A stretch of DNA of 64,000 nt from positions 4,032 to 68,031 of IMG/VR virus record IMGVR_UViG_3300045988_167796; one strand, 5' to 3'. The notes beneath the pieces were generated by a model. That model had not been told where the DNA came from and made no database searches. It worked only from the letters and a program-made list of their open reading frames with translations. A program made the position numbers and the translations under genes. This document shows positions 3,861 to 41,724 of the stretch, piece by piece; the first letter of the stretch is position 1, and every line of letters begins with the position of its first letter. This stretch comes from a virus.

Positions 3861-4271
3861 ATGGAAGTAAGTAAAGAGATTATTGAAGTACTTGATTATA
3901 TTGGTGACAAGTTTGGAATTGCTGTGAATTGGACGGATAAAAACGTCCTTCCATATGTGCAGCAGTTATGTGAGAAATTTATTAAATGGGATATTGCAAC
4001 ATCAGTTTACTGGATTGGATTCGCTATCATATTTGTTATCGCTGGTATTGTGTTAGTAAAATACGGAAAGAAATTTATAAATAAAGCGGAAGATATGGAT
4101 GATATGCATTTTGGTTTAGGAGTTACGTATATTGTTTTAGCAGTTTGTTTATTCGTAATATCTTTTATCATAATTCCATGTCAGATATATGATATTGTTA
4201 AGGATTGTTATATGCCAGAATTAAGATTATATGAATATGCAAAATCATTTATTTCAAATAATACGAGGTAA
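3861..4271 (+). CDS. membrane protein (2-3 predicted TM helices)
   Basis: Hydrophobic stretches WIGFAIIFVIAGIVLV and IVLAVCLFVISFIIIP. Confidence 0.45.
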   Translation: MEVSKEIIEVLDYIGDKFGIAVNWTDKNVLPYVQQLCEKFIKWDIATSVYWIGFAIIFVIAGIVLVKYGKKFINKAEDMDDMHFGLGVTYIVLAVCLFVISFIIIPCQIYDIVKDCYMPELRLYEYAKSFISNNTR

Positions 4272-8572: not shown

Positions 8573-8740
8573 ATGGAAAAATACGTAGATAAACACGGAA
8601 GAGTAGCGGAAGTACACACTGATATAAATGGTAAATGTTTTGCCTATATTAAAGATAAAAGAGAATATTCACCTTTATTCCCTGATAAAAAGAATCTTGT
8701 TAAATGGTTGGTAAGAGAAGGATATGAGGAGGTAGCATGA
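8573..8740 (+). CDS. hypothetical small protein (55 aa, below ORF-track cutoff)
   Basis: SD aggagaac, ATG 8573. Stop overlaps the next start (ATGATG). Confidence 0.35.
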   Translation: MEKYVDKHGRVAEVHTDINGKCFAYIKDKREYSPLFPDKKNLVKWLVREGYEEVA

Positions 8741-9321
8741 TGAGAGAGTATGATTTTGAGGTGATTATTTGTAGTGAAAAATGTGATGGGTGTGTGACTG
8801 TTGAAGCAAGTGATAAAGACGATGCTATAAATAAAGCAATAAAATATGTTGGTGATAAATTATACGAAGCTCTTCCTGAATTAGATATTGAATATGGAGT
8901 AAATTTTATTGAAGATGATGAATACAAAAAAGAAGAGAACAAGATTAAAAACGATAAAGATGTTCTTACAAAAGAAGAAGCTGTTAGACTTCATCGTGAG
9001 TTATGGAATAAGATTGCAGAATTAATTAAAGAAAATGGCATTGAAAAATATGACTACAATATTGACAAAATAAAAAAATCTGCATTAGAAGAATTAGGAT
9101 ATGATCCTAAAAATATTTATGAGTATTGTTGGTGCTGCGAATATAATAATGAACATGGTGGATATCGATGCAAGAGATGCCCTGTAGAGTGGGATAATAT
9201 AATATGTTCAGAATCAGAATTTGGAGAGTTTTGGTATGCTGTAGAAGACGAAGAGAGTGAAGAACTTGCTTATAATATTGCTATTAAAATAGCAAATTTA
9301 CCAGAAAGAGAGGATGTTTAA
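8737..9321 (+). CDS. Cys-rich protein, paralogue family member 2 (with ~80-aa N-terminal extension)
   Basis: C-terminal 110 aa align with members 1 and 3 (LTKEEAVRLHRELWNKIAELI, CWCCEY..C.RCPVEW, IANLPERED). SD gaggagg. Confidence 0.5.
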   Translation: MMREYDFEVIICSEKCDGCVTVEASDKDDAINKAIKYVGDKLYEALPELDIEYGVNFIEDDEYKKEENKIKNDKDVLTKEEAVRLHRELWNKIAELIKENGIEKYDYNIDKIKKSALEELGYDPKNIYEYCWCCEYNNEHGGYRCKRCPVEWDNIICSESEFGEFWYAVEDEESEELAYNIAIKIANLPEREDV

Positions 9322-9323
9322 TT

Positions 9324-9629
9324 ATGAAGAAGATTATTAATGGAAAAAAATATGATACAGATACTGCGAAACTCATGGGTACATATACAAACGGAAGATC
9401 GTATTCTGATTTAGAATTTATGATGAGAGAATTATATAAGAAAAGAACAGGGGAATTCTTCTTGTATAATACTGGTGGTCCAATGAGTGTGATGGCCGTA
9501 TACAACGGAAATAGTATTAGTGGATCAGAAGAGATTGTTCCAGTTACTGAGGAAGAAGCAAAAGAATGGGCTGAGGAATGGTTAAGTGCTGATAAATACG
9601 AGATAATTTTCGGAGAAGTGGAGGAATGA
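9324..9629 (+). CDS. hypothetical protein
   Basis: 101-aa ORF with TAATTATGA coupling to the upstream gene. Confidence 0.4.
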   Translation: MKKIINGKKYDTDTAKLMGTYTNGRSYSDLEFMMRELYKKRTGEFFLYNTGGPMSVMAVYNGNSISGSEEIVPVTEEEAKEWAEEWLSADKYEIIFGEVEE

Positions 9630-9634
9630 TTAAA

Positions 9635-10012
9635 ATGACAAGAAGAGAAGCATACGAAAAACATAAGGCGTTGTGGAATGAAATTGCAAAGATGATTGAT
9701 AAAGGGATTAAATATAATAATCCAGAGACATACAAATCTGAAGCGTTAGAAAGATTAGGGTACTACGATTATACTTTTAATAACTGTTATGCATGCGAAG
9801 TTACAAAATGTTGTAGCGATTGTTTAGTTGTTTGGAAATTTGCTACTTGCATGTATCAAGGATCAGAATATATGAATTTTATTTATGAAGTGGAACATAA
9901 TAATTATGATTCTGCAAAAGAATATGCAAGGAAAATCGCAAATCTTCCACTTAGAGAAGGATTTGATATAGACAAAGATATTTATGAAGATGATTATGAG
10001 GTGATTATATGA
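9635..10012 (+). CDS. Cys-rich protein, paralogue family member 3
   Basis: MTRREAYEKHKALWNEIAKMI...CYACEV..CCSDC..VW...IANLPLREG. ATGA overlap with the RT start. Confidence 0.5.
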   Translation: MTRREAYEKHKALWNEIAKMIDKGIKYNNPETYKSEALERLGYYDYTFNNCYACEVTKCCSDCLVVWKFATCMYQGSEYMNFIYEVEHNNYDSAKEYARKIANLPLREGFDIDKDIYEDDYEVII

Positions 10013-11274
10013 AAGATATTTTGCTGCAAAAATTTTTTGAATCAGAAAGATGGGAAAAGGCAATTGAAACTGGTGTCGGAAAAGGGATTGATAAAGGTGA
10101 GCTTCGGCAATTATGTTCTCCGGAAATAAGAGCTGCAATGTATAACTGTATCATTTCTGATAATTATGAAATCGCTCCGCCTCATCAGGCTAAAATTCCA
10201 AAAGACAATGGTGACTTCCGTATTGTATATGTAAATGAAAATGTAGATAGAGTGTTCTTATCTATTGTAAATGATATGTTGTTTGAAATGTTCCCGGAAA
10301 TGGTACATAAAAGATGCAAATCCTATCAGTCCGGTATTGGATGTGGGAAAATTGTACAGGAAGTATCAAGGACGATTTGCAATACAAATGGTGATGTGAT
10401 TGGATGGAAGTCAGATCTTAGCAAGTACTTTGATTCAGTTCCAATCCAGTTTATTGATAGAGTATTTGATACAATAGAAAGCAAAGTCGGCAAATCGAAA
10501 ATAATTGATGTAGTACGTAAATATTATCATACAGATTTATGTTTTGATGTAGATGGAAATTTAATTGAACATTATCAGTCATTAAAACAGGGATGTGCAG
10601 TTGCTAGTTTTCTGGCAGATGCTGTACTTTATGATATTGATGATATGCTTAGTAAATTAGATGGATATTATGTAAGATATTCTGATGACTGTCTATTCGT
10701 TGGTAACGATTATGAAGATGCTATGATAATTATGCAGTATATGCTTGCTGATATGGAGATGACTCTTAATCCAAAGAAAGTTGAGTATCTGCATGCTGAT
10801 AAATGGTTCAAATTTCTTGGATTTAACATTAAAGGATCTATGATATCACTTTCGAAACAACGCGTGAAATCTTTTCAAAAAGAAATCTGTAATAGAAGTA
10901 TAAATAAAAAGGATATTACACAACAAAAAGCGTTGAATAGTATTAATAGATATTTGTATATTGGAGATGGAAGATTTTCATGGGCAACATCAGTTCTTCC
11001 TATTATTAATGTACAGAAAGATATTGATACATTAAATGATTATGTAATGGATTGTATAAGAGCATGTAATACCGGAGGAAAAAGAATCGGAGGACTTGGA
11101 AGTGTAAATGATAGAAATGATTTTACGATTATAAGAGGAACTGGAAGAAATGTAAAAGCGAATAAAAAGAAAACAGAAAAGAAAATTGATGGGTATTATA
11201 GTATCCGATGTATGCAGAAAGTAATTCTTACAAACAGAGCTGCTTATGACACTATTGTGAGAAGCTTGGCTTAA
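10009..11274 (+). CDS. reverse transcriptase (retron / group II / Abi-like, not DGR-type)
   Basis: All RT motifs present: IPKDNGDFRIVYV (motifs 1-2), SDLSKYFDSVP (A), LKQGCAVASFLADAVL (B'), YVRYSDDCLFVG (C), LNPKKVEY (D), FLGFNI (E). Confidence 0.75.
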   Translation: MKDILLQKFFESERWEKAIETGVGKGIDKGELRQLCSPEIRAAMYNCIISDNYEIAPPHQAKIPKDNGDFRIVYVNENVDRVFLSIVNDMLFEMFPEMVHKRCKSYQSGIGCGKIVQEVSRTICNTNGDVIGWKSDLSKYFDSVPIQFIDRVFDTIESKVGKSKIIDVVRKYYHTDLCFDVDGNLIEHYQSLKQGCAVASFLADAVLYDIDDMLSKLDGYYVRYSDDCLFVGNDYEDAMIIMQYMLADMEMTLNPKKVEYLHADKWFKFLGFNIKGSMISLSKQRVKSFQKEICNRSINKKDITQQKALNSINRYLYIGDGRFSWATSVLPIINVQKDIDTLNDYVMDCIRACNTGGKRIGGLGSVNDRNDFTIIRGTGRNVKANKKKTEKKIDGYYSIRCMQKVILTNRAAYDTIVRSLA

Positions 11275-11292
11275 TAACTGATAAATTAAAAA

Positions 11293-12066
11293 AATGATGC
11301 AAACACATGCATAATATACAAGATCAATTCAATTCAATGATGCTGCTATTACTCCTGGAACAGAATCTAGGAGGATCAGTATCCTGATCCTCCTATATCC
11401 TTTATCCAGGATAATTGCAGCTTAATATGAAACTGTTAAAGAGATGTGTCAAATTGATTGAGTATATTTTTTTTGTACGTATTTAAATCACAATGCAGTG
11501 ACAGGTTTACAATGTAGTTATATTTAATACGGCGGATAATAGCAGGAATATCATCCTGCATATTCCGCCATATATGAAACAAATAAAGGTATGCATTAAT
11601 ACTAATGAGTAAACCAAAACGTATTACAACGTAGACATACAAGGTAATTCAATTCACAATGCGGGTAATATGGAAAGCTGCTCTTCAGGTATCCCTGAAG
11701 AAGCTGCCTCCAATTACCTGCGCATAAGATGAAGCAGATAAAAAGATGTAACGAAATTATTGAGTATGTCAAAAAATGTAGTGCAACATAAGTATACAAG
11801 GTTAGTTAATTCAATCTTGCAGGTAATAAAGATTCATGGTGCCTCCATCTATCTTCGGAGGCACCATGAATCTTATTACCCGTATAATATGAAACTTATA
11901 AAGAAATGCACCATACTAAATGAGTATACTAAAAACACACAGCGCAGTGTTGGTTGACAAGGTATTCAATATTCAATATAGATCCATCAATTCATCTCTG
12001 ATTCAGGACCCGCCGGTTTATCTACCGGCTGATCCTGAATCCATTGATGACCAATGGATCTATTAT
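11293..12066 (+). repeat. array of five ~150-bp degenerate tandem units (A 11293-11477, B 11478-11612, C 11613-11791, D 11792-11957, E 11958-12066)
   Basis: Each unit has a conserved leader (acaaggtaattcaat-like), a unique long hairpin, and a conserved segment ATATGAAAC.TATAAAGAGATG...ATTGAGTAT. All five hairpin loops contain TATC. Hairpins: A 11370-11393 (10-bp perfect stem), B 11531-11569, C about 11660-11725, D 11819-11882 (12-bp perfect core 11835-11868), E 11980-12060. Confidence 0.7.
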
Positions 12067-12624
12067 ATGAAACATATAAAGAGATGCGTCGAGAATGCAG
12101 AGTCAATTAAGAATACAATGAAAGGGGTTATTATTTTGAGTGTTATGACAATATATGAAGAATTATTAGATCTTGTACAATGTGGGAAAAGATTTAAGAT
12201 TGATTTTAAAAAGAGAAATATGCGTGTTGGAAACGAATGGCTTATAAAGGACGGAGAATGGGATCTTGAAAGAGAGTTGATTAAGTCTGAATATAATAAT
12301 CCGGTGGATAGCCTTGTAAATGATTGGTGTCTAGCTAAAATAAGTCTATTATATATGGATTATAAATATTCTACTCCAAGTGAAAAAAGCGAATTAAGAA
12401 GACAAAAGAATTATTTCTATGCTTTACCTTCTGAAAAAATGTCAGATAAAGAATTGATAACTGGGAAGGATAGAGAATATGCAAGAGCTGCATTAGAAGG
12501 ATTTATATTATGTGTTATTTTAGCAGGATGGTTAACGTGGGATGAACATAAAATGGGAAAATGGTTCTATCGGGGAAAAGATAAGGATCTAATTATTCTT
12601 AGAGAATGGATTGAAGAAAAATAA
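12067..12624 (+). CDS. hypothetical protein (MKHIKRCVENAESIKN...); its 5' end is unit E of the upstream array
   Basis: ORF continues from the conserved ATG of unit E. Units A-D carry truncated copies of the same N-terminus. Alternative starts at TTG 12136 or ATG 12143 after SD aaagggg. Confidence 0.45.
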   Translation: MKHIKRCVENAESIKNTMKGVIILSVMTIYEELLDLVQCGKRFKIDFKKRNMRVGNEWLIKDGEWDLERELIKSEYNNPVDSLVNDWCLAKISLLYMDYKYSTPSEKSELRRQKNYFYALPSEKMSDKELITGKDREYARAALEGFILCVILAGWLTWDEHKMGKWFYRGKDKDLIILREWIEEK

Positions 12625-12668
12625 AATATAGCATTGATATTAAAAATATAGAAAAGGAGAATGAGATT

Positions 12669-13619
12669 ATGATGAAAAACAGAACAAAGAGAGAAGAAAC
12701 TATGAAAAATGCAGGTATTAATACAGGTAAATATTTTAGTATTCAGTTACCTGAAGGATTAAAGCCAGGATCTACAGTCAGTATTATTATTAATGAAAAT
12801 GGAGAAGCAGTTTTATCTAATGATAATTCTGTACATAAACACGACTTTGATGATATTGAAAATCAGATTTTTGCAAATGGATATGTAAAGAATACAAAGC
12901 TGCATAGACGTTGGGTCATGGCCCAGATGTTTCGGATGTTAAATTATGAAAGGAATCAGTTTGATAAAGGATATGATGCATGTTTAAGAAATTGCTATCC
13001 TTATCAGTATCAGTTTAAAATGATGCTTGAAGAAGTTAGAGTATTGTCGAAATTAGAATGTTCTGATAAACAGGCATATGAAGAAAGATCACATTTCTTT
13101 GATCAATATGTTATTATTAAAACATGCAATGATTATTTAGAAAAATTAAGAAGATATATTGCTGGATTAAAAATTAGACACTGCAAAGGAATTGAATATG
13201 TAAGAATTTCTGGAAAAGATATTTTTATCAGTGATTTGAACAACAAAGTATATATGCCTTTAGAAAATATGATTCGTAATATTAAATATTCCATTAATTA
13301 TAATGCATTATATTGTAATCTTCGAAGATTTATTAATAAAATGATCAAACTACCTGACAATACTCCAAAATGCAAAGAATGGATTGATGCGTATAAAGGC
13401 GCAGGTAGTTATTATACGTTGATGAATATGGTTAAATTCCATAATTGTTTTATCATCAATCAGTATACCGGAGAAGTATTGCGTGGATGTGATTCTGTAA
13501 AATACTTAGAGGATATGCTTTACTTATACCATGATCAGTATTGGAGAATGTTTGCTTTATTGAAACAGACTATTAAAGATAATAATTTTGATTTTTATAA
13601 AAGAATGAGTGAAATTTAA
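12669..13619 (+). CDS. hypothetical protein
   Basis: 316-aa ORF with SD aaaaggagaatga. Confidence 0.45.
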   Translation: MMKNRTKREETMKNAGINTGKYFSIQLPEGLKPGSTVSIIINENGEAVLSNDNSVHKHDFDDIENQIFANGYVKNTKLHRRWVMAQMFRMLNYERNQFDKGYDACLRNCYPYQYQFKMMLEEVRVLSKLECSDKQAYEERSHFFDQYVIIKTCNDYLEKLRRYIAGLKIRHCKGIEYVRISGKDIFISDLNNKVYMPLENMIRNIKYSINYNALYCNLRRFINKMIKLPDNTPKCKEWIDAYKGAGSYYTLMNMVKFHNCFIINQYTGEVLRGCDSVKYLEDMLYLYHDQYWRMFALLKQTIKDNNFDFYKRMSEI

Positions 13620-13763
13620 ACTTCATCCCTATTTAATGGGACAAATTATTCACTTATAATACAAAATGCGAAAATATGTTCGATTTATTATTGCATTATA
13701 TTCTAGAATATGATATAACATAAAACAGAACAAACGTTTGGATTTTGCTTGCTGGAGGTTTTT

Positions 13764-14066
13764 ATGAAAGAGATCATGGTTGCTGTAGTTAATAGTAGTA
13801 AATCAAAAGTTGAATTATTCAAATTTATTAATGAGGAGGAAGCAAAAAATTATATAAAACAAAGATATACAAGTGAGATTCGTAATGCCCCTATTTACGA
13901 TTATGAGCATACATTTATTGATAAGAGTTTTCGGAACGCAAAAGTTTCTGCAGGTGTATATAGTGTCAATATTATAATGTGTAAAAATGTTAAATCGTAT
14001 AACAATAAAATAAAACGAAAAAATAATTGCTATAGGAAGAGAAAGACAGGAAGAAATGTAATGTAA
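13764..14066 (+). CDS. hypothetical basic protein
   Basis: SD ggaggt, then ATG at 13764. Confidence 0.35.
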   Translation: MKEIMVAVVNSSKSKVELFKFINEEEAKNYIKQRYTSEIRNAPIYDYEHTFIDKSFRNAKVSAGVYSVNIIMCKNVKSYNNKIKRKNNCYRKRKTGRNVM

Positions 14067-14077
14067 GATATGAAACG

Positions 14078-14110
14078 AAGGCTGTTGCATATAAAATGTG
14101 GCAGCCTTTT
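14078..14110 (+). terminator. rho-independent-type terminator hairpin (aaggctg...cagccttttg)
   Basis: 7-bp GC-containing stem followed by a TTTTG run. Confidence 0.45.
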
Positions 14111-14171
14111 GTAGTTATTGTATATGAAGGGCTTTATAAGCTCTTTTTTTTATGGAAAGAATGGTGATTAT

Positions 14172-14837
14172 ATGAAGAAAACAGATGTCGTGACAGTAGA
14201 AGATGCAAAAGAAATAACAGGATTACACTTCACTTTAAAACATACAGGCAAAATGAAAGGAATGCAAAGCTTATCGACGAGCTGTTTGTGTAATAGTTAT
14301 TGTGAAGCTAGATCAAATAATCCGGATATTATATGTAGCCATTGTTATGCGCAGCGGCAGATGAAAATGTATAAAAGTATGGAGAAATGTTTTAAGAAGA
14401 ATACAGAAATACTTACAAGTATGATTATCCAGGAAGATATACTTCCGTTGATTAATGCAGCTTATTTTCGATTTGAATCATTTGGCGACATTAACAATGA
14501 GATTCAGGTTATTAATTATTTTAATTTGTGTAAAAAGAATCCAAATGTACACTTTGCATTATGGACAAAAAATCCATGGATCATTGATCATGTTTTGGAA
14601 AATGGTAGTCATATTAAAAAACCGCGCAATTTGCAGATTATTTTAAGCAGTACATATTTGAATACTCCTGACGATAAAGCGAGGTGGAGATTTGTGGATA
14701 AAATATTTACTGTATACGATAAGAAATATATCAAAGAACATAATGTAGATATTAACTGCGGGGCAAAAAGCTGCTTGAAATGTCATAAGTGCTATATAAA
14801 AGGGAAAGATGTGTATATTAATGAAATATTAAAATAG
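14172..14837 (+). CDS. hypothetical Cys-rich protein (CLCNSYC...CSHCYA)
   Basis: ATG 14172 after SD ggtga. The longer in-frame start at 14118 is possible. Confidence 0.4.
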   Translation: MKKTDVVTVEDAKEITGLHFTLKHTGKMKGMQSLSTSCLCNSYCEARSNNPDIICSHCYAQRQMKMYKSMEKCFKKNTEILTSMIIQEDILPLINAAYFRFESFGDINNEIQVINYFNLCKKNPNVHFALWTKNPWIIDHVLENGSHIKKPRNLQIILSSTYLNTPDDKARWRFVDKIFTVYDKKYIKEHNVDINCGAKSCLKCHKCYIKGKDVYINEILK

Positions 14838-14844
14838 CTAACAA

Positions 14845-14858
14845 ATAATATTAAAAAG
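14845..14858 (+). promoter_or_regulatory. AATAATATTAAAAA motif
   Basis: Upstream of 14890. Confidence 0.4.
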
Positions 14859-14889
14859 TATATTGACAATATAAGAAAGGAGATATAAA

Positions 14890-15468
14890 ATGAAGACAAG
14901 AATAGGTTATAAATTATTACGTGTAATGAAGACCCGTCCTGGCGAGTTGTTCCCATTATATGTTAATGCTGATCAATCTATTCCAATAGGAGTATGGTTA
15001 ACGGCAGAATGTGGTGAGCGTTTAGAAAATGGAAAAGTAAAATCAAGATTAGGAGAACTAAAATTTAGACATGGATGGCATATAAATGATAATGTACCTT
15101 TTGTTTCTCATATCGGAATAAAAGAAAATGGGAAAATTACATATATGAGAAATGATACAGTATGGTGCGAAGTAGAGTATGACGCAGATATTGATTATCA
15201 GCTTGAAGCTGTCCATAATGGATATACGAATGGAAGATTTGATAGTCGTAAGGCTTGTTTAGATTACATTCCAGAAAATGGATTCTATAAATATAAGACT
15301 AGCCCTATGATGAAAGGAGAATGGATAATTTCAGGAAATATGCGTATTCTCAGAGTGTTAAATGATAATGAAGTATATGATATATGCAAAGCACACGGTG
15401 TTATGCCGTTGAAAAGAAAATGTGAATTTGATTATCAGGCATATGGATTTGCTTCTAAAGGAGCGTGA
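14890..15468 (+). CDS. hypothetical protein
   Basis: Preceded by the AATAATATTAAAAA motif and SD aaaggagat. Confidence 0.45.
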   Translation: MKTRIGYKLLRVMKTRPGELFPLYVNADQSIPIGVWLTAECGERLENGKVKSRLGELKFRHGWHINDNVPFVSHIGIKENGKITYMRNDTVWCEVEYDADIDYQLEAVHNGYTNGRFDSRKACLDYIPENGFYKYKTSPMMKGEWIISGNMRILRVLNDNEVYDICKAHGVMPLKRKCEFDYQAYGFASKGA

Positions 15469-15706: not shown

Positions 15707-16009
15707 ATGCTATCACCAGAAGATATTAAAAGATTTGACAAGATGAAAGATGAGGTGCTACATGAAAAGTTAAAATTTCATGAAAATCTAGGATGGATGA
15801 TTATCGTTGGATTATTTTGTCTCGTTATAAAAGATGGATGGTTTGGTATCGTTTGTCTTATTATTTATGGGATTTATGGATTAAGCGAGGAAATCAAAGT
15901 AGAAGAATACTATAATACTGTAGTAAAAGCACGTAGGGAACAGTTTAAAAAAGATCATATTTTAAGAAATAAGGATGGTTCACCATATGACTGGAAGAGT
16001 AGAAAATGA
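15707..16009 (+). CDS. small membrane protein
   Basis: SD aagggagga. Hydrophobic core MIIVGLFCLVIKDGWFGIVCLIIYGIYG. Confidence 0.45.
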   Translation: MLSPEDIKRFDKMKDEVLHEKLKFHENLGWMIIVGLFCLVIKDGWFGIVCLIIYGIYGLSEEIKVEEYYNTVVKARREQFKKDHILRNKDGSPYDWKSRK

Positions 16010-16952
16010 AATTAAAATAAATAATAATATTCAAGTGCTATTAGAGGATCTTCCTGAATATGTTAGTGATTATTATTATAACATACAGGTATCTAATACG
16101 CCGAATACATGCAGACAATATATTAGAGATATTAAAAATTTCCTAATATATATAGACATGGATATTGCGTCAGTAAATGATGCTGTTTTAGGAAAATATT
16201 TACAGAGCATTAAATATGCTGGAGGGAAAAAACGATCAGAAGAATATGTAAAAAAAATATATTCATGTTTAAATCAATTTTTGCAATACTTAAATAATAA
16301 AAATATAATTGACGATAACCCAATGAAACTTATCAAACGTCCGAGTAAAAAAGACCATGTAGAAAGATATTATTTGGATATGAAAGATCTTTCAAAAATA
16401 TTAGAATCGGTTATTCATGATTATGGTTCTCAATGGCAGAGCAGAGATTATGCGATATTATTTATACTGATGGTTACCGGAATGAGAAGGACGGCATTAA
16501 GCGAAATAAACATTGAAGATATCGATTTTAAAGCAAAGGAGATTAAAGTTGTTGATAAAAGAGATAAACTTCAGATTTATGTTATAACTGATGAAATGAG
16601 GGATGTATTATTAGAGTGGATTGATGAAAGGGATAGAATCTTGAAAAAGATGAACAAAAATTCAGATGCTTTATTTATATCATCAAGGGGTGAAAGAATA
16701 ACTGATAAATTAGTATATCGTGTTACTCAAAAATACTCAGAAAAAGCATTAGGAAGAAAAGTTTCCCCGCATAAGTTAAGAGCTTCTTTTGCTGTATTAT
16801 ATTATGAAAAATCTGGTCATGATATTGAAGCAACAAGAGATGCGATGGGTCATAGTGATATAGCAATAACTGGTAGATATATTACAAAGAATAATAAAGC
16901 AAGATGCGATTCTGCTAATTTTATGTCTTCTGGTTTAACAAAAAAAAACTAA
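15975..16952 (+). CDS. tyrosine recombinase / integrase (XerC/D-like)
   Basis: C-terminal catalytic signature HSDIAITGRYI (H-x-x-R...Y) plus upstream RRTALSEI Arg box. Start may be ATG 15987. Confidence 0.65.
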   Translation: MVHHMTGRVENEIKINNNIQVLLEDLPEYVSDYYYNIQVSNTPNTCRQYIRDIKNFLIYIDMDIASVNDAVLGKYLQSIKYAGGKKRSEEYVKKIYSCLNQFLQYLNNKNIIDDNPMKLIKRPSKKDHVERYYLDMKDLSKILESVIHDYGSQWQSRDYAILFILMVTGMRRTALSEINIEDIDFKAKEIKVVDKRDKLQIYVITDEMRDVLLEWIDERDRILKKMNKNSDALFISSRGERITDKLVYRVTQKYSEKALGRKVSPHKLRASFAVLYYEKSGHDIEATRDAMGHSDIAITGRYITKNNKARCDSANFMSSGLTKKN

Positions 16953-17006
16953 TAGACAAAATTAAAAATATATGATATCATTTTACAATGAAGGAGGTGT
17001 ATATTT

Positions 17007-18269
17007 TTGTTAAAAGAAAGATCAGAATTAGAACAATTGATTTCAGACAAAAATAGTCGTATACTTTTTGATACAGAAAAATGTCTTAAACTATGTGATT
17101 TGTGTTATGAAAACTTTAAAATTCCAAGAGGTGAAATATCTGATATTATTTCTTCCAGAAAAAGTATTGAAGAAGTAAGTGAATTTGTATTATTTGCTAT
17201 TTTAAATAGCTATGATATTTTAAGAAATTTAAAAAAACCTAAAGTTAATGAATACTTTACTCCTATAGAGATCGAGCACTTTAGCAAGTCAGTATACTGT
17301 ATAGATGATATTAGGTTCCCTTTAGTATTTGATATGTTACAGGTTGCAAATGACCAATGGATCGGCACTATATCTGTAAAAGATATTATTAAATTTAGAA
17401 GGGCACAATTTATTCATTATGATGTTGATACACAAAGGGCAATGCAGCGTATCGTGAGAGGAAATAAAGAGTATTATAAGATAAAAGTAAATAACAGTGC
17501 CGTTGAAAGTATATCTACATTAATGGAAAATAATCAATATATACCTAATACTCTTACTTTTAATATTCCTCCTGATGTTGAGTCTGATTTCTATTATGAC
17601 GAAGAAAAGAAACAATTGATCATCCGAAAATTAAAATATTTCAATATATCTGATGGATATCATAGGTATATAGCTATAGGAAAACTTAGCGAAAAAGATG
17701 AAGATTTTAATTTAACAATGGAATTAAGAATTACTAATTTTTATGATGATAAAGTGCAGAATTTTACGTTCCAGGAAGACCAAAAAACAAAAATGTCTAA
17801 AATTGATTCAGACACATATAACACAAATGACCCGGCGAATACTGTTTCAACAAGACTTAATGAAGATCCAAGATCAAATATAAAAGGATTGATTGGAAGA
17901 AATCAATCAATTATTCCTATGCAGGATCTTTCAAGATGTATTAAGTATTTCTATTTTAATTCAAATGCTTCTTATGTAAAAACACAAAAGAGTATTATAG
18001 AAGTAACAAAAGAATTGATGGAAGATTTTAATATTTTGACAGAAGAAGTACCTCAGTTCCTGGAAAAACGAATGGATTTTAATGTGTTAAGCTGCATATT
18101 GTATATATTCAAATTGTACCAAACCAAAGATAAATCTCATATGGTACAATCAGTACAATACCTTATTGAAAAAAGTAGTAGTATTGATCAAAGAAAATTT
18201 GCATCTAGAAAAATTAGAAAACCTTTAGTTAATGAATTTGATAAAATAATGGAAGGAGTTGAGTTTTGA
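17007..18269 (+). CDS. hypothetical protein with DGQHR-like motif (ISDGYHRYIAIGK), DndB-like?
   Basis: TTG start after SD gaaggaggtg. DGYHR resembles the DGQHR-domain signature. Confidence 0.35.
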   Translation: MLKERSELEQLISDKNSRILFDTEKCLKLCDLCYENFKIPRGEISDIISSRKSIEEVSEFVLFAILNSYDILRNLKKPKVNEYFTPIEIEHFSKSVYCIDDIRFPLVFDMLQVANDQWIGTISVKDIIKFRRAQFIHYDVDTQRAMQRIVRGNKEYYKIKVNNSAVESISTLMENNQYIPNTLTFNIPPDVESDFYYDEEKKQLIIRKLKYFNISDGYHRYIAIGKLSEKDEDFNLTMELRITNFYDDKVQNFTFQEDQKTKMSKIDSDTYNTNDPANTVSTRLNEDPRSNIKGLIGRNQSIIPMQDLSRCIKYFYFNSNASYVKTQKSIIEVTKELMEDFNILTEEVPQFLEKRMDFNVLSCILYIFKLYQTKDKSHMVQSVQYLIEKSSSIDQRKFASRKIRKPLVNEFDKIMEGVEF

Positions 18270-30811: not shown

Positions 30812-33238
30812 GTGTCAGATCAGAGAGAAAGAGATTTAGTACTCAACCCTAATGAATACGCTTATGTTCTTGATAAAACAAAAGGACTTATTTCATGCGT
30901 TGTAGGCTCATACAAAATGAGCCTGTCAACTTCAGATGCTCTTGTTGTTTTTAATGAGAGAACAAAAAGATTTGAAGAAGCTAATTTCCAGGATGCCATC
31001 ACAACATTTGTATCTGCTCCGGAAAACTGGTATGTAACATTAAAAAATCCTGCAAAGGATAATGCACATCCTACAACCGGAACTTCAAACCAGCTGCCAG
31101 ATTTGCAGATTGGTAAAAAAGTAAATATTAAAGGTAATGTTTCATTTGCTTTGTATCCTGGACAGATGGCAAAAGTTATTCAGGGGCATAGATTGCATTC
31201 AAATCAGTATCTTTTGGCAAGAGTATATGATGCAGATGTTCTCCCTAAATCAGAGGATGGTAATGAATATTCTGTTGGTCAGCTTCTTGTGATTAAAGGA
31301 ACAGAAGTACCGTTTTATATTCCACCAACTGGTATTGAAGTATTGCCGGTAGAAAGAAAAGAAAATATGTATGTAAGAGATGCAGTAACTCTAGAAAGAC
31401 TTGAATATTGCATTCTTAAAGATGAACAAGGAAATAAGAAATATATTCATGGTCCAGCAGTTGTATTTCCAGAACCTGATGAAGTATTCGTAGAAAGTTC
31501 TAAAGGAAATTATATTTTTAAAGCAATTGAACTTTCTGAAATCAGCGGTATTTATGTAAAGGTAATTGCTGATTATAAAGATGATGGCAAGGAATACAAA
31601 GCAGGTGATGAACTATTTATTACAGGCAAGGATCAGATGATTTATTATCCACGCCCAGAACATGCAATTATTGATTATGAAGGAAAAGTAATTCATCATG
31701 CAATTGCAATCCCGGTAGGAGAAGGAAGATATGTGCTTGATCGAAAAACTGGTAATATTAAAACTGTTAAAGGTGCCAAGATGTATCTTCCAGATCCTAG
31801 AAATGAGGTAATTGTAAGAAGAAAACTTACAAAGAAACAGTGTGAATTATGGTATCCAGGGAATAATGAAGTTTTAAAATACAATACAGGGATTGATAAT
31901 ACACAGTTATACTATTGTGATTCTTCTGTATCAAGAAGTGTCCCAAGTATGTCTCTTACATCACTTTCATGCAATGTATCAATGGATGCTTTGGAAAATG
32001 GATTTATTGGTCAGGAAAATGCTATTGTAAATGAAGGTTTTTCAAGAGGAAATACATATAGTAAACCAAGAACAATTACGATTGATAATAAGTATGACGG
32101 AGTTGTCAGCATAGATATTTGGACGGGATACGCAGTAAATGTAGTATCTAAAAATGGAAATCGTAAAGTAGTTCTTGGACCTCAGACATATCTTATGGAT
32201 TATGATGAGACACTTGAAGTACTTGAGCTGTCTACAGGAAAACCAAAAACAACAGATCATTTATTTAAGACTGTATTTTTAAGAGTTGAAAACAATAAAA
32301 TTAGTGACATTATTAAAGTACAGACAAAAGATTTTGTTGAAGTTCAGGTTAAAGTATCTTACTGTGTAGATTTTCTTCCGGAATACCAGGATAAATGGTT
32401 TAATGTTGAAAACTATGTAAAATACATGACAGACCGGCAGAGATCTTTAATGAAACGAGAAGCTAAGAAGTATACAATTGAAGAATTTTATGAGAACGCA
32501 TCCGAAATTATTAGAAATGTCGCGCTTAATATTGATTCTGAAAATACAAGAGAAGAATCAGAAAGCAGCCATGGTACAGGAAGATTATTTAAAGAAAACG
32601 GAATGTTTGTTCGTGATGTAGAAGTTTTAAGTGTACATGTTGAAGAAGATGTAGAAGATATGATTAACGATCATTATCAGACAATGATGGAGAAAACACT
32701 TGAACTTTCTAATGTGAATAAAGAAATTGAAGTAATAAAACAGCTTACAGAAGCAGAAAAAACAAAAGCTGATTTAAAAAATCAGAGTGACATGTATAAG
32801 CTGGAATTAAAGAATCGATACGAAAAAGAAAGTATTGAAAAACGTGAAGCTATCAGAAGAATGGAAGAGCAGGCTGAAATTGATAAGAAAACTGCAGAAA
32901 AGAATTTACAGGAACTGAAAGATACGATTCAGAAAGCGGAATTAGCAAGAGAAAAAGAGAAAAATGATCTTGAACTTGCAAGGAAGAAAGAGATTGATAA
33001 TTTATCGATTACTAAACAGAAAGCATATACAGATGCTATTAAGAAAGTAATTGAATCCATTAGTCCTGATCTTATTGCTTCTATGACTTCTCAGTCAAAT
33101 GCAGAACTTCTTAAATCTGTATCTGAATCTATTAGCCCATATGCAATGGCTAGTGGTGAATCTGTTGCAGAATTTACAAATAAATTGCTGAGAGGTACAT
33201 CTCTTGAGGGTTTATTAAGCAAAGTTGTAAGTGAGTAA
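30812..33238 (+). CDS. large hypothetical protein (808 aa) with C-terminal coiled coil
   Basis: Motif plus SD upstream. C-terminal 200 aa are heptad-rich (KADLKNQSDMYKLELKNRYEKE...). Confidence 0.5.
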   Translation: MSDQRERDLVLNPNEYAYVLDKTKGLISCVVGSYKMSLSTSDALVVFNERTKRFEEANFQDAITTFVSAPENWYVTLKNPAKDNAHPTTGTSNQLPDLQIGKKVNIKGNVSFALYPGQMAKVIQGHRLHSNQYLLARVYDADVLPKSEDGNEYSVGQLLVIKGTEVPFYIPPTGIEVLPVERKENMYVRDAVTLERLEYCILKDEQGNKKYIHGPAVVFPEPDEVFVESSKGNYIFKAIELSEISGIYVKVIADYKDDGKEYKAGDELFITGKDQMIYYPRPEHAIIDYEGKVIHHAIAIPVGEGRYVLDRKTGNIKTVKGAKMYLPDPRNEVIVRRKLTKKQCELWYPGNNEVLKYNTGIDNTQLYYCDSSVSRSVPSMSLTSLSCNVSMDALENGFIGQENAIVNEGFSRGNTYSKPRTITIDNKYDGVVSIDIWTGYAVNVVSKNGNRKVVLGPQTYLMDYDETLEVLELSTGKPKTTDHLFKTVFLRVENNKISDIIKVQTKDFVEVQVKVSYCVDFLPEYQDKWFNVENYVKYMTDRQRSLMKREAKKYTIEEFYENASEIIRNVALNIDSENTREESESSHGTGRLFKENGMFVRDVEVLSVHVEEDVEDMINDHYQTMMEKTLELSNVNKEIEVIKQLTEAEKTKADLKNQSDMYKLELKNRYEKESIEKREAIRRMEEQAEIDKKTAEKNLQELKDTIQKAELAREKEKNDLELARKKEIDNLSITKQKAYTDAIKKVIESISPDLIASMTSQSNAELLKSVSESISPYAMASGESVAEFTNKLLRGTSLEGLLSKVVSE

Positions 33239-41658: not shown

Positions 41659-41724
41659 GTGGCATTAGCTCAAATGGGAGAGCACTGTTCACAGAGGTTA
41701 ATGGTTCGAATCCATTATGCCACA
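41659..41724 (+). pseudogene. truncated tRNA-like element lacking a proper anticodon arm (66 nt)
   Basis: Perfect acceptor gtggcat/atgccac, D arm gctc-aaatggga-gagc and T arm aatgg-ttcgaat-ccatt. Only 16 nt lie between the D and T arms. Confidence 0.4.

Follow-up and report, generated by a model that had tools for sequence, protein, structure and literature searches.

The window analysed here is a stretch of 64,000 nucleotides of viral DNA (positions 4,032 to 68,031 of IMG/VR record IMGVR_UViG_3300045988_167796; coordinates are those of the window, counted from its first letter). Between positions 10009 and 13619 it carries a reverse transcriptase (RT) gene, an array of five tandem structured units and two accessory genes, which very probably make up a UG27 RT system of a phage. 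The array had been noticed earlier, from the letters alone, as a series of hairpin units of unfamiliar architecture (the original prediction). The three genes of the locus are:

10009..11274, + strand: UG27 reverse transcriptase, 421 aa, YSDD active site (PADLOC RT_UG27, Pfam RVT_1)
12145..12624, + strand: sORF, small UG27 accessory protein, 159 aa, cluster 346 (PADLOC RTas346)
12669..13619, + strand: bORF, large UG27 accessory protein, 316 aa, cluster 337 (PADLOC RTas337)

Judged by its sequence, the RT is a full-length member of the UG27 group of class 2 UG/Abi RTs. Residues 1-420 align with the PADLOC RT_UG27 profile from end to end (1-420/420; E 6e-217, 718 bits), the runner-up model being RT_UG26 (E 3.6e-37). 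The protein also scores against Drt9 (E 6e-23), Drt2 (E 3.4e-9) and, as the best retron model, RT_Ec107-like (E 2.1e-9), and contains a Pfam RVT_1 match (E 5.9e-21). Its translation includes the sequence VRYSDDCLF, of which Y224, S225, D226 and D227 are invariant across 12 relatives. Among proteins of solved structure, the closest in sequence are RTs of the retron and group II types (E about 1e-12). The earlier description of the RT as complete and as separate from diversity-generating retroelements (DGRs) is upheld. Membership of the locus in the DGRs was rejected, as the central hairpins of the units have no template repeat/variable repeat partner (no match longer than 14 nt) in the 64 kb. 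Just upstream of the RT lie genes for two apparently paralogous Cys-rich small proteins (8737-9321 and 9626-10012, + strand), the second of which overlaps the RT start (ATGA). These proteins were considered as a fourth conserved UG27 component and set aside, being present only in the closest relatives.

UG27 RTs are found mostly in gut phages of Bacteroidetes and Firmicutes, with no association with defence islands, and the survey that described them placed the group in class 2 of the UG/Abi RTs and tied two proteins to it, the RTas346 and RTas337 clusters (Mestre et al., 2022, PMC9226505). The sORF matches RTas346 (E 2.6e-49, profile 1-146/147) and the bORF matches RTas337 (E 1.2e-104, profile 19-314/316); sequence searches of Pfam, PHROGs and the PDB returned no match for the accessory proteins. 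Both genes are kept in the related loci, where the sORF adjoins the RT.

It had been proposed that the 3' segments of the units encode truncated copies of the N-terminus of an open reading frame (ORF) at 12067-12624, with unit E as the real 5' end of that gene. The RTas346 profile begins at residue 27 of this ORF, and in an alignment of 14 sORF homologues nine begin cleanly with a MTIYEELL-like sequence aligned to the ATG at 12145; therefore the sORF begins at this ATG and unit E is non-coding. The called N-terminal extension, which is unrelated-looking, occurs only in the three closest relatives (P0241-P0243) among the 14 homologues, and tblastn matches to the sORF in other loci span 156-162 aa. 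From these alignments, gene callers are seen to absorb the last array unit wrongly into the sORF start, in close relatives as well as here. The sORF ATG is preceded by GAAAGGGG at 12120-12127, and unit E abuts the ribosome-binding site of the gene.

The array occupies 11298-12108 on the + strand, between the RT and the two accessory genes. The five units of about 150 bp first placed at 11281-12145 are indeed five in number, but their lengths vary from 128 to 171 nt and the limits of the array are those just given. Unit B is short, with a central region of 47 nt. A repeat search recovers five copies of a 46-nt 3' segment (at 11420, 11567, 11722, 11882 and 12060), spaced 147-178 nt apart and 61-76% identical to the reference copy, with a different long inverted repeat ahead of each copy and with inverted repeats between leader and 3' end that close units A, C and D. 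The copies are too divergent for Tandem Repeats Finder, which gives no repeat at the array. RNAfold, suggested with the original prediction as a check on each unit, predicts a single long hairpin in every unit (dG -22 to -44 kcal/mol). The leader, the 3' segment and the unit-specific palindromes are thus present as first described, but a small hairpin at the 5' end of the unit and a pseudoknot had been overlooked.

The anatomy of the unit was derived from relatives. A total of 52 related IMG/VR loci were collected (RTs 65-71% identical), and 43 units from the window and eight loci (L001, L002, L004, L006-L009 and L048) were aligned. From its 5' end each unit consists of a 4-bp hairpin with a 6-nt loop (P0), the 5' strand of a 7-bp helix (P1a), one side of a conserved AA/GA internal loop, the 5' strand of a further helix of about 5 bp (P1b, with an opening G-U pair in 33 of the 43 units), a UUCA or UUUA motif and the long unit-specific hairpin. 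The hairpin is followed by the conserved sequence AUAUG-AAAC-N3-UAAAG-ARA, by a 5-nt stretch complementary to the P0 loop, with which it makes the pseudoknot, and by the 3' strands of P1b and then P1a. The UUYA motif corresponds to the conserved alignment columns T42, T43 and A45. Base pairing is retained while the paired letters change. In the pseudoknot 100% of cells are paired and 5/5 pairs have changed on both sides; P1 has 95% of cells paired with 11/12 pairs compensatory, and P0 is 79.5% paired. For the whole structure the value is 86.5%, with 29 of 30 pairs changed on both sides, as against 59.7% in shuffles (0/500 as high) and 27-42% with slid partners. The alignment supports a fold that each unit would adopt on its own. 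Its elements lie in the window as follows:

Unit A, 11298..11468, + strand: P0 11298-11311; P1a 11313-11319 with 11462-11468; pseudoknot ACACA 11303-11307 with UGUGU 11445-11449; UUCA 11333-11336; central hairpin 11337-11426; apical UAUC 11380-11383; box AUGAAACUGUUAAAG 11427-11441
Unit B, 11488..11615, + strand: P0 11488-11502; P1a 11504-11510 with 11609-11615; pseudoknot AUGCA 11493-11497 with UGCAU 11592-11596; UUUA 11523-11526; central hairpin 11527-11573; loop AUAUCA (UAUC 11549-11552); box 11574-11588
Unit C, 11619..11770, + strand: P0 11619-11632; P1a 11634-11640 with 11764-11770; pseudoknot UUACA 11624-11628 with UGUAA 11747-11751; UUCA 11653-11656; apical UAUC 11690-11693; box AUGAAGCAGAUAAAA 11729-11743, last letter A not G
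Unit D, 11776..11930, + strand: P0 11776-11789; P1a 11791-11797 with 11924-11930; pseudoknot GUGCA 11781-11785 with UGCAC 11907-11911; UUCA 11810-11813; central region 11814-11888, 27 predicted pairs, 10-nt loop containing UAUC 11850-11853; box 11889-11903
Unit E, 11937..12108, + strand: P0 11937-11950; P1a 11952-11958 with 12102-12108; pseudoknot GCGCA 11942-11946 with UGCGU 12085-12089, one G-U pair; UUCA 11972-11975; apical UUAUCU (UAUC 12019-12022); box 12067-12081

The five pseudoknots of the window have five different sequences, and all are perfectly complementary (5/5 units). UUCA or UUUA is found in all five units, and the box 3' of the hairpin keeps its exact 7-nt spacing in all five, with G as the third letter (AUG-N7-UAAAG); in unit C it ends in UAAAA.

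The same units are recovered by a covariance model that has not seen them. Model R2, built from 39 units of other phages only and holding no window sequence, was run with filters off on 9000-15000 and gives exactly five matches, all on the + strand:

11292-11469, + strand: unit A, E 2.9e-24
11482-11616, + strand: unit B, E 9e-16
11618-11769, + strand: unit C, E 1.6e-13
11770-11931, + strand: unit D, E 3.4e-20
11932-12109, + strand: unit E, E 4.7e-17

On neither strand did this search give a further match up to E 0.1. A second model, R1, built from units that include those of the window, was run on the whole 64 kb with default filters; up to E 1 its matches on either strand are confined to the array. 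A covariance-model search had been proposed with the original prediction, and the units recur in related phage loci. Relatives at 65-71% RT identity have two to three more units after the bORF; none of these post-bORF units was found in the window, which has a single array block. Known RNA families do not account for the units. An Rfam 15 E-value scan of 9000-14000 (E up to 10) returned only spurious hairpins of microRNA precursors and no retron msr family, and the gathering scan of the whole window returned no family for the units, only microRNA-precursor noise and tRNAs.

A structured non-coding RNA (ncRNA) 'with three long stem-loops' was predicted in 2022 between the UG27 RT and its accessory gene (PMC9226505). 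According to the available text of the 'Minerva' preprint of 24 Sep 2026 (bioRxiv 10.64898/2026.09.22.753630), this region is a variable array of about 150-nt units, of which 82,314 were counted in 14,118 loci and whose lengths peak at 149 and 167 nt. At the base of the published unit is a hairpin; the unit also forms a pseudoknot and contains an asymmetric internal loop in which short motifs lie. Each central hairpin is reported there to yield complementary DNAs (cDNAs) of 50-100 nt that start at the AUC of an AUC-N7-UANAG box and end after UUYA, and that are abolished by changing YSDD to YSAA or by deleting either accessory ORF. The opinion that the array matches no described architecture has thus been overtaken: the UG27 ncRNA appears in PMC9226505, and the array and its cDNAs in the text of the preprint. 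The unit anatomy described above, which was derived independently, matches that text feature by feature, and the third letter of the box is the sole literal difference.

This letter varies within the RT clade. Among 156 non-redundant units 132 have ATG and 24 have ATC. L053, a contig of a Faecalimonas metagenome-assembled genome (MAG) with an RT 70% identical to that of the window, contains units that match the covariance model of this analysis (E down to 6e-23) and read ATC-N7-TA[AG]AG in the column where the window has ATG-N7-TAAAG, and L054, from the same MAG, has ATG. The shared column indicates that the AUG box of the window is the published AUC box, its third letter varying between clades, and the C of AUC is therefore treated as a consensus letter that probably differs from clade to clade. 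The homologues with ATC, together with the compensatory RNA pairing, agree with the earlier view that the 3' segment is conserved as nucleic acid and not as peptide.

Taken together, it is very probable that the locus is a phage UG27 RT system, in which the RT, the five-unit ncRNA array, the sORF and the bORF lie on one strand and serve the synthesis of cDNA. Of the possibilities first listed for the array, an RT-associated structured ncRNA resembling an array of msd elements is the one that the evidence favours. The array would be transcribed as RNA together with the genes. In each unit the P0 loop would form its 5-bp pseudoknot with the 3' strand of the asymmetric internal loop, and the closing stem (P1a, the conserved AA/GA mismatch and P1b) would hold the base of the unit, from which the unit-specific hairpin with its UAUC cap would project. 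The RT would work with both accessory proteins, as the preprint reports for five other UG27 systems and as homology suggests here. Synthesis would begin at the AUG of the AUG-N7-UAAAG box, copy the hairpin and stop after the UUCA box. The predicted templates are:

11333-11429, + strand: unit A, 97 nt
11523-11576, + strand: unit B, 54 nt
11653-11731, + strand: unit C, 79 nt
11810-11891, + strand: unit D, 82 nt
11972-12069, + strand: unit E, 98 nt

These lengths fit the published range of 50-100 nt, and reach 105 nt if the upstream copy of a tandem UUCA is used. The expected output is five different minus-sense single-stranded DNAs (ssDNAs), each of which could fold into a hairpin with a 5'-GATA-3' loop. 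The hairpins have no similarity or complementarity longer than 14 nt elsewhere in the 64 kb (best E 0.017). This agrees with the preprint, which reports no obvious complementarity of the cDNAs to phage or host genomes and leaves their biological role open.

Several observations weigh against this assignment. All five units have AUG at the predicted initiation site, in place of the published AUC; the box of unit C ends in UAAAA and not UANAG; and the hairpin of unit B has only 14 predicted pairs. In addition, the cDNA output of this phage's locus is predicted by homology, and the experiments given in the preprint's text, which is not peer-reviewed, were heterologous (E. coli, T7 promoter) and concerned five other systems.

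The apical loop is the part of the unit-specific hairpin that stays constant. The earlier observation that every loop contains TATC was correct for the window, where it lies inside the apical loop of all five units (11380, 11549, 11690, 11850 and 12019), and reflects a real conserved feature. TATC is found in the apical loops of 37 of the 54 units of the closest clade and of 73 of the 156 related units overall, compared with 0.5% per position in the stems of related hairpins. It persists where the stems have been remodelled with compensation, as between the window and L060. Among 72 tetraloops there are 34 TATC, 5 TAAC, 5 TACC, 1 TAGC and 1 TGGC, and so the tetraloop consensus, as read from the sequences, is UANC. 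The 12 commonest 4-mers in the loops of the 156 units do not include GATA, and none of the 72 tetraloops is GATA; the loop motif is therefore strand-specific. The unit that directly follows the RT lacks the TATC loop in related arrays and has it in the window. The first-unit loops of relatives are:

L001, 5272-5396: TCAA
L002, 2383-2520: CGAGTA
L004, 5277-5404: ATGC
L006, 5273-5419: GAGGG
L007, 5286-5453: TGTG
L009, 5282-5430: AAA

It is conceivable, and is put forward here tentatively, that the UANC loop (mostly UAUC) is a second functional element on the payload that gives all the cDNA hairpins a common GNTA display. After reverse transcription each hairpin, differing in its stem, would show a 5'-GNTA-3' loop (mostly GATA), which is a DNA loop of the GNNA type. 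GNNA or GNA loops form unusually stable DNA mini-hairpins, and this is a lead only. Such a loop could stabilize the hairpin or could be read by one common partner, with the stems as the variable part. If this is true, the conserved loop is a concrete handle on the function of UG27 cDNAs. None of the words apical, tetraloop, UAUC and GATA appears in the text of bioRxiv 10.64898/2026.09.22.753630, figures aside.

The different start triplet could be taken to mean that in the AUG clade the array is not a template at all, and acts instead as a structured RNA, binding or controlling the RT complex or some other partner as a scaffold, a sponge or a cis-regulator of sORF and bORF. All five units of the window and 132 of the 156 units of the clade have AUG where the tested systems have AUC, and unit E lies against the sORF ribosome-binding site. 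However, AUG and AUC arrays are otherwise homologous: the two are matched by one model at E 1e-23 or better and are found together in one Faecalimonas MAG. The RT, sORF and bORF are also intact and conserved. A non-template RNA is therefore unlikely.

A retron-like arrangement, in which each unit is an msr-msd and its hairpin is copied into branched multicopy single-stranded DNA primed from the 2'-OH of a conserved G, is very unlikely. The combination of an RT with a structured ncRNA closed by flanking inverted repeats around a long hairpin template recalls a retron, as do the retron-type and group II RTs among the nearest solved structures. Membership of the retrons was nevertheless rejected: RT_UG27 (E 6e-217) far outscores the best PADLOC retron model (E 2.1e-9), Rfam gives no retron msr at E up to 10, and the ncRNA is arrayed and lies downstream of the RT. 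In the systems tested in the preprint, as its text has it, two unrelated accessory proteins are also needed.

The original prediction further allowed for elements acting at the level of DNA, either hairpins that serve as single-strand origins or nicking sites, or a promoter-leader duplicated in series. In favour of these, the palindromes are long and imperfect and share a constant loop, and promoter-like hexamers do occur in the region, yet the hexamers are no commoner than in shuffled sequences (34 found, 32.7 expected), and the predicted terminators in the array region are the unit hairpins themselves. The conserved opening G-U pair, the loop motif that favours TATC over GATA, and the pseudoknot between a loop and a distant strand, which makes sense only for a folded single strand, favour a folded + strand; all model matches lie on the gene strand as well. 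The covariation is strand-specific, and DNA-level elements are highly improbable. Finally, the idea that the 3' segments encode short peptides (MKxxKxC...) or are decayed sORF starts, to which the ATG-initiated mini-ORFs of all five units and the calling of sORF into unit E in close relatives lend colour, is hardly tenable and is rejected because homologous units have ATC and hence no start codon, the equivalent frame of L006 meets a stop after five codons (ATGAAGCAATTAAAGTAA) and the sORF family starts at MTIYEELL, the segment being accounted for by RNA pairing with compensatory changes.

The closest relatives of the UG27 locus show how the array changes. In L060, L062 and L063 (RTs 92-94% identical) units A, C, D and E are present and unit B is missing. 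L062 and L063 retain the last ~12 nt of unit B (ATGAGTAAAC...), which indicates that unit B was lost as one whole unit when the similar 3' ends of adjacent units recombined. Hypervariability of the payload is modest over this distance, the central hairpins being 76-95% and the scaffolds 81-98% identical. The RT, sORF and bORF are 85-94% identical to those of L060/L062 and the flanking genes 61-74%, so the UG27 module (10009-13619) would appear to be either better conserved than its surroundings or more recently exchanged. A sister clade (L011-L052, RTs 65-66% identical) has other genes directly after the RT and its array more than 4.8 kb downstream, for example:

L042, 8889-9066
L044, 8855-9032
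L038, 9025-9206

The relatives are assigned to Faecalimonas, Ruminococcus, Prevotella and Bacteroides assemblies. A cultured example is Bacteroides phage BS-TP1 (PQ571274.1, host B. salyersiae BG8), the UG27 RT of which is 64% identical and annotated 'tail protein' (gp79); L059 6001-8612 corresponds to PQ571274.1 79351-81962. In this phage the RT is followed by an unannotated gap of 1.35 kb with at least five model matches and the box ATC-N8-TAAAG.

The window belongs to a metagenomic contig of 171,722 bp (ENA ERZ27229639 k119_175764). It carries phage-style genes for replication and nucleotide metabolism, encoding an NAD-dependent DNA ligase, DNA polymerase III alpha and NrdD, an anaerobic ribonucleotide reductase. 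Every ORF of the window with 220 aa or more (29 in total) is encoded on the + strand; each 4-kb bin has a GC skew between +0.22 and +0.37, at a GC content of 30-34%. Other features are:

15975-18269, + strand: tyrosine recombinase (Phage_integrase, E 5.2e-26) and a DndB-like protein (E 9.7e-7, slightly short of the Pfam cut-off), 2.4 kb downstream of bORF
30812-33238, + strand: 808-aa protein with major-vault-protein-like domains (Pfam MVP_shoulder E 3.9e-22, Vault_3 E 2.3e-8) in a phage genome
40671-41724, + strand: tRNA cluster; Gln(UUG, 92 nt), Leu(UAA, 86 nt) and Ile(UAU, 88 nt) from ARAGORN, and a fourth tRNA (41659-41724) from Rfam that ARAGORN does not report

Compared with known systems, the locus is a typical representative of one described only very recently, the architecture and biochemical output of which are already known, and it probably lies within the published set derived from the Joint Genome Institute. 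It shares with the published UG27 systems the RT clade, both accessory proteins, the phage carrier, units of about 150-170 nt with diverse sequence and conserved structure, the basal hairpin and pseudoknot, an asymmetric internal loop with UUYA in its 5' strand and the N7-UANAG box in its 3' strand, and the gain or loss of units between close relatives. It differs in having AUG and not AUC in all five units, and in the conserved UAUC (UANC) apical loop, which goes unmentioned in the preprint's text, figures aside. The loop motif, the AUG variant and the deletion of unit B are incremental and possibly new details.

With retrons UG27 systems share a compact RT that copies the long hairpin of an adjacent structured ncRNA into a short ssDNA, and a stem of the unit ends that closes the template. 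The UG27 RT, however, is a class 2 UG/Abi enzyme, its templates are arrayed downstream of the RT with no msr match, its synthesis requires two unrelated accessory proteins, its product is not known to be branched, and the systems are phage-borne with no defence-island association (PMC9226505). DRT2 (UG2) and DRT9 (UG28) are similarly class 2 UG/Abi RTs, each with a dedicated structured ncRNA as template or cofactor, but theirs is a single ncRNA upstream of the RT and, in the summary given in the preprint's text, their cDNAs are long or concatemeric and do not form a set of short hairpins. Membership of either was rejected on the model scores (Drt2 E 3.4e-9 and Drt9 E 6e-23 against UG27 6e-217) and on the downstream, arrayed ncRNA. 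Engineered retron arrays (PMC10370050) also combine tandem templates with several ssDNAs from one RT; these are man-made, and the UG27 array is their natural counterpart, built from different parts. UG27 thus represents a natural case of one RT making a set of different short ssDNA hairpins from a modular template array, for which the strand-specific conserved loop of the payload, the natural AUG/AUC variation of the start site and the cultured pair of BS-TP1 and B. salyersiae BG8 are usable points.

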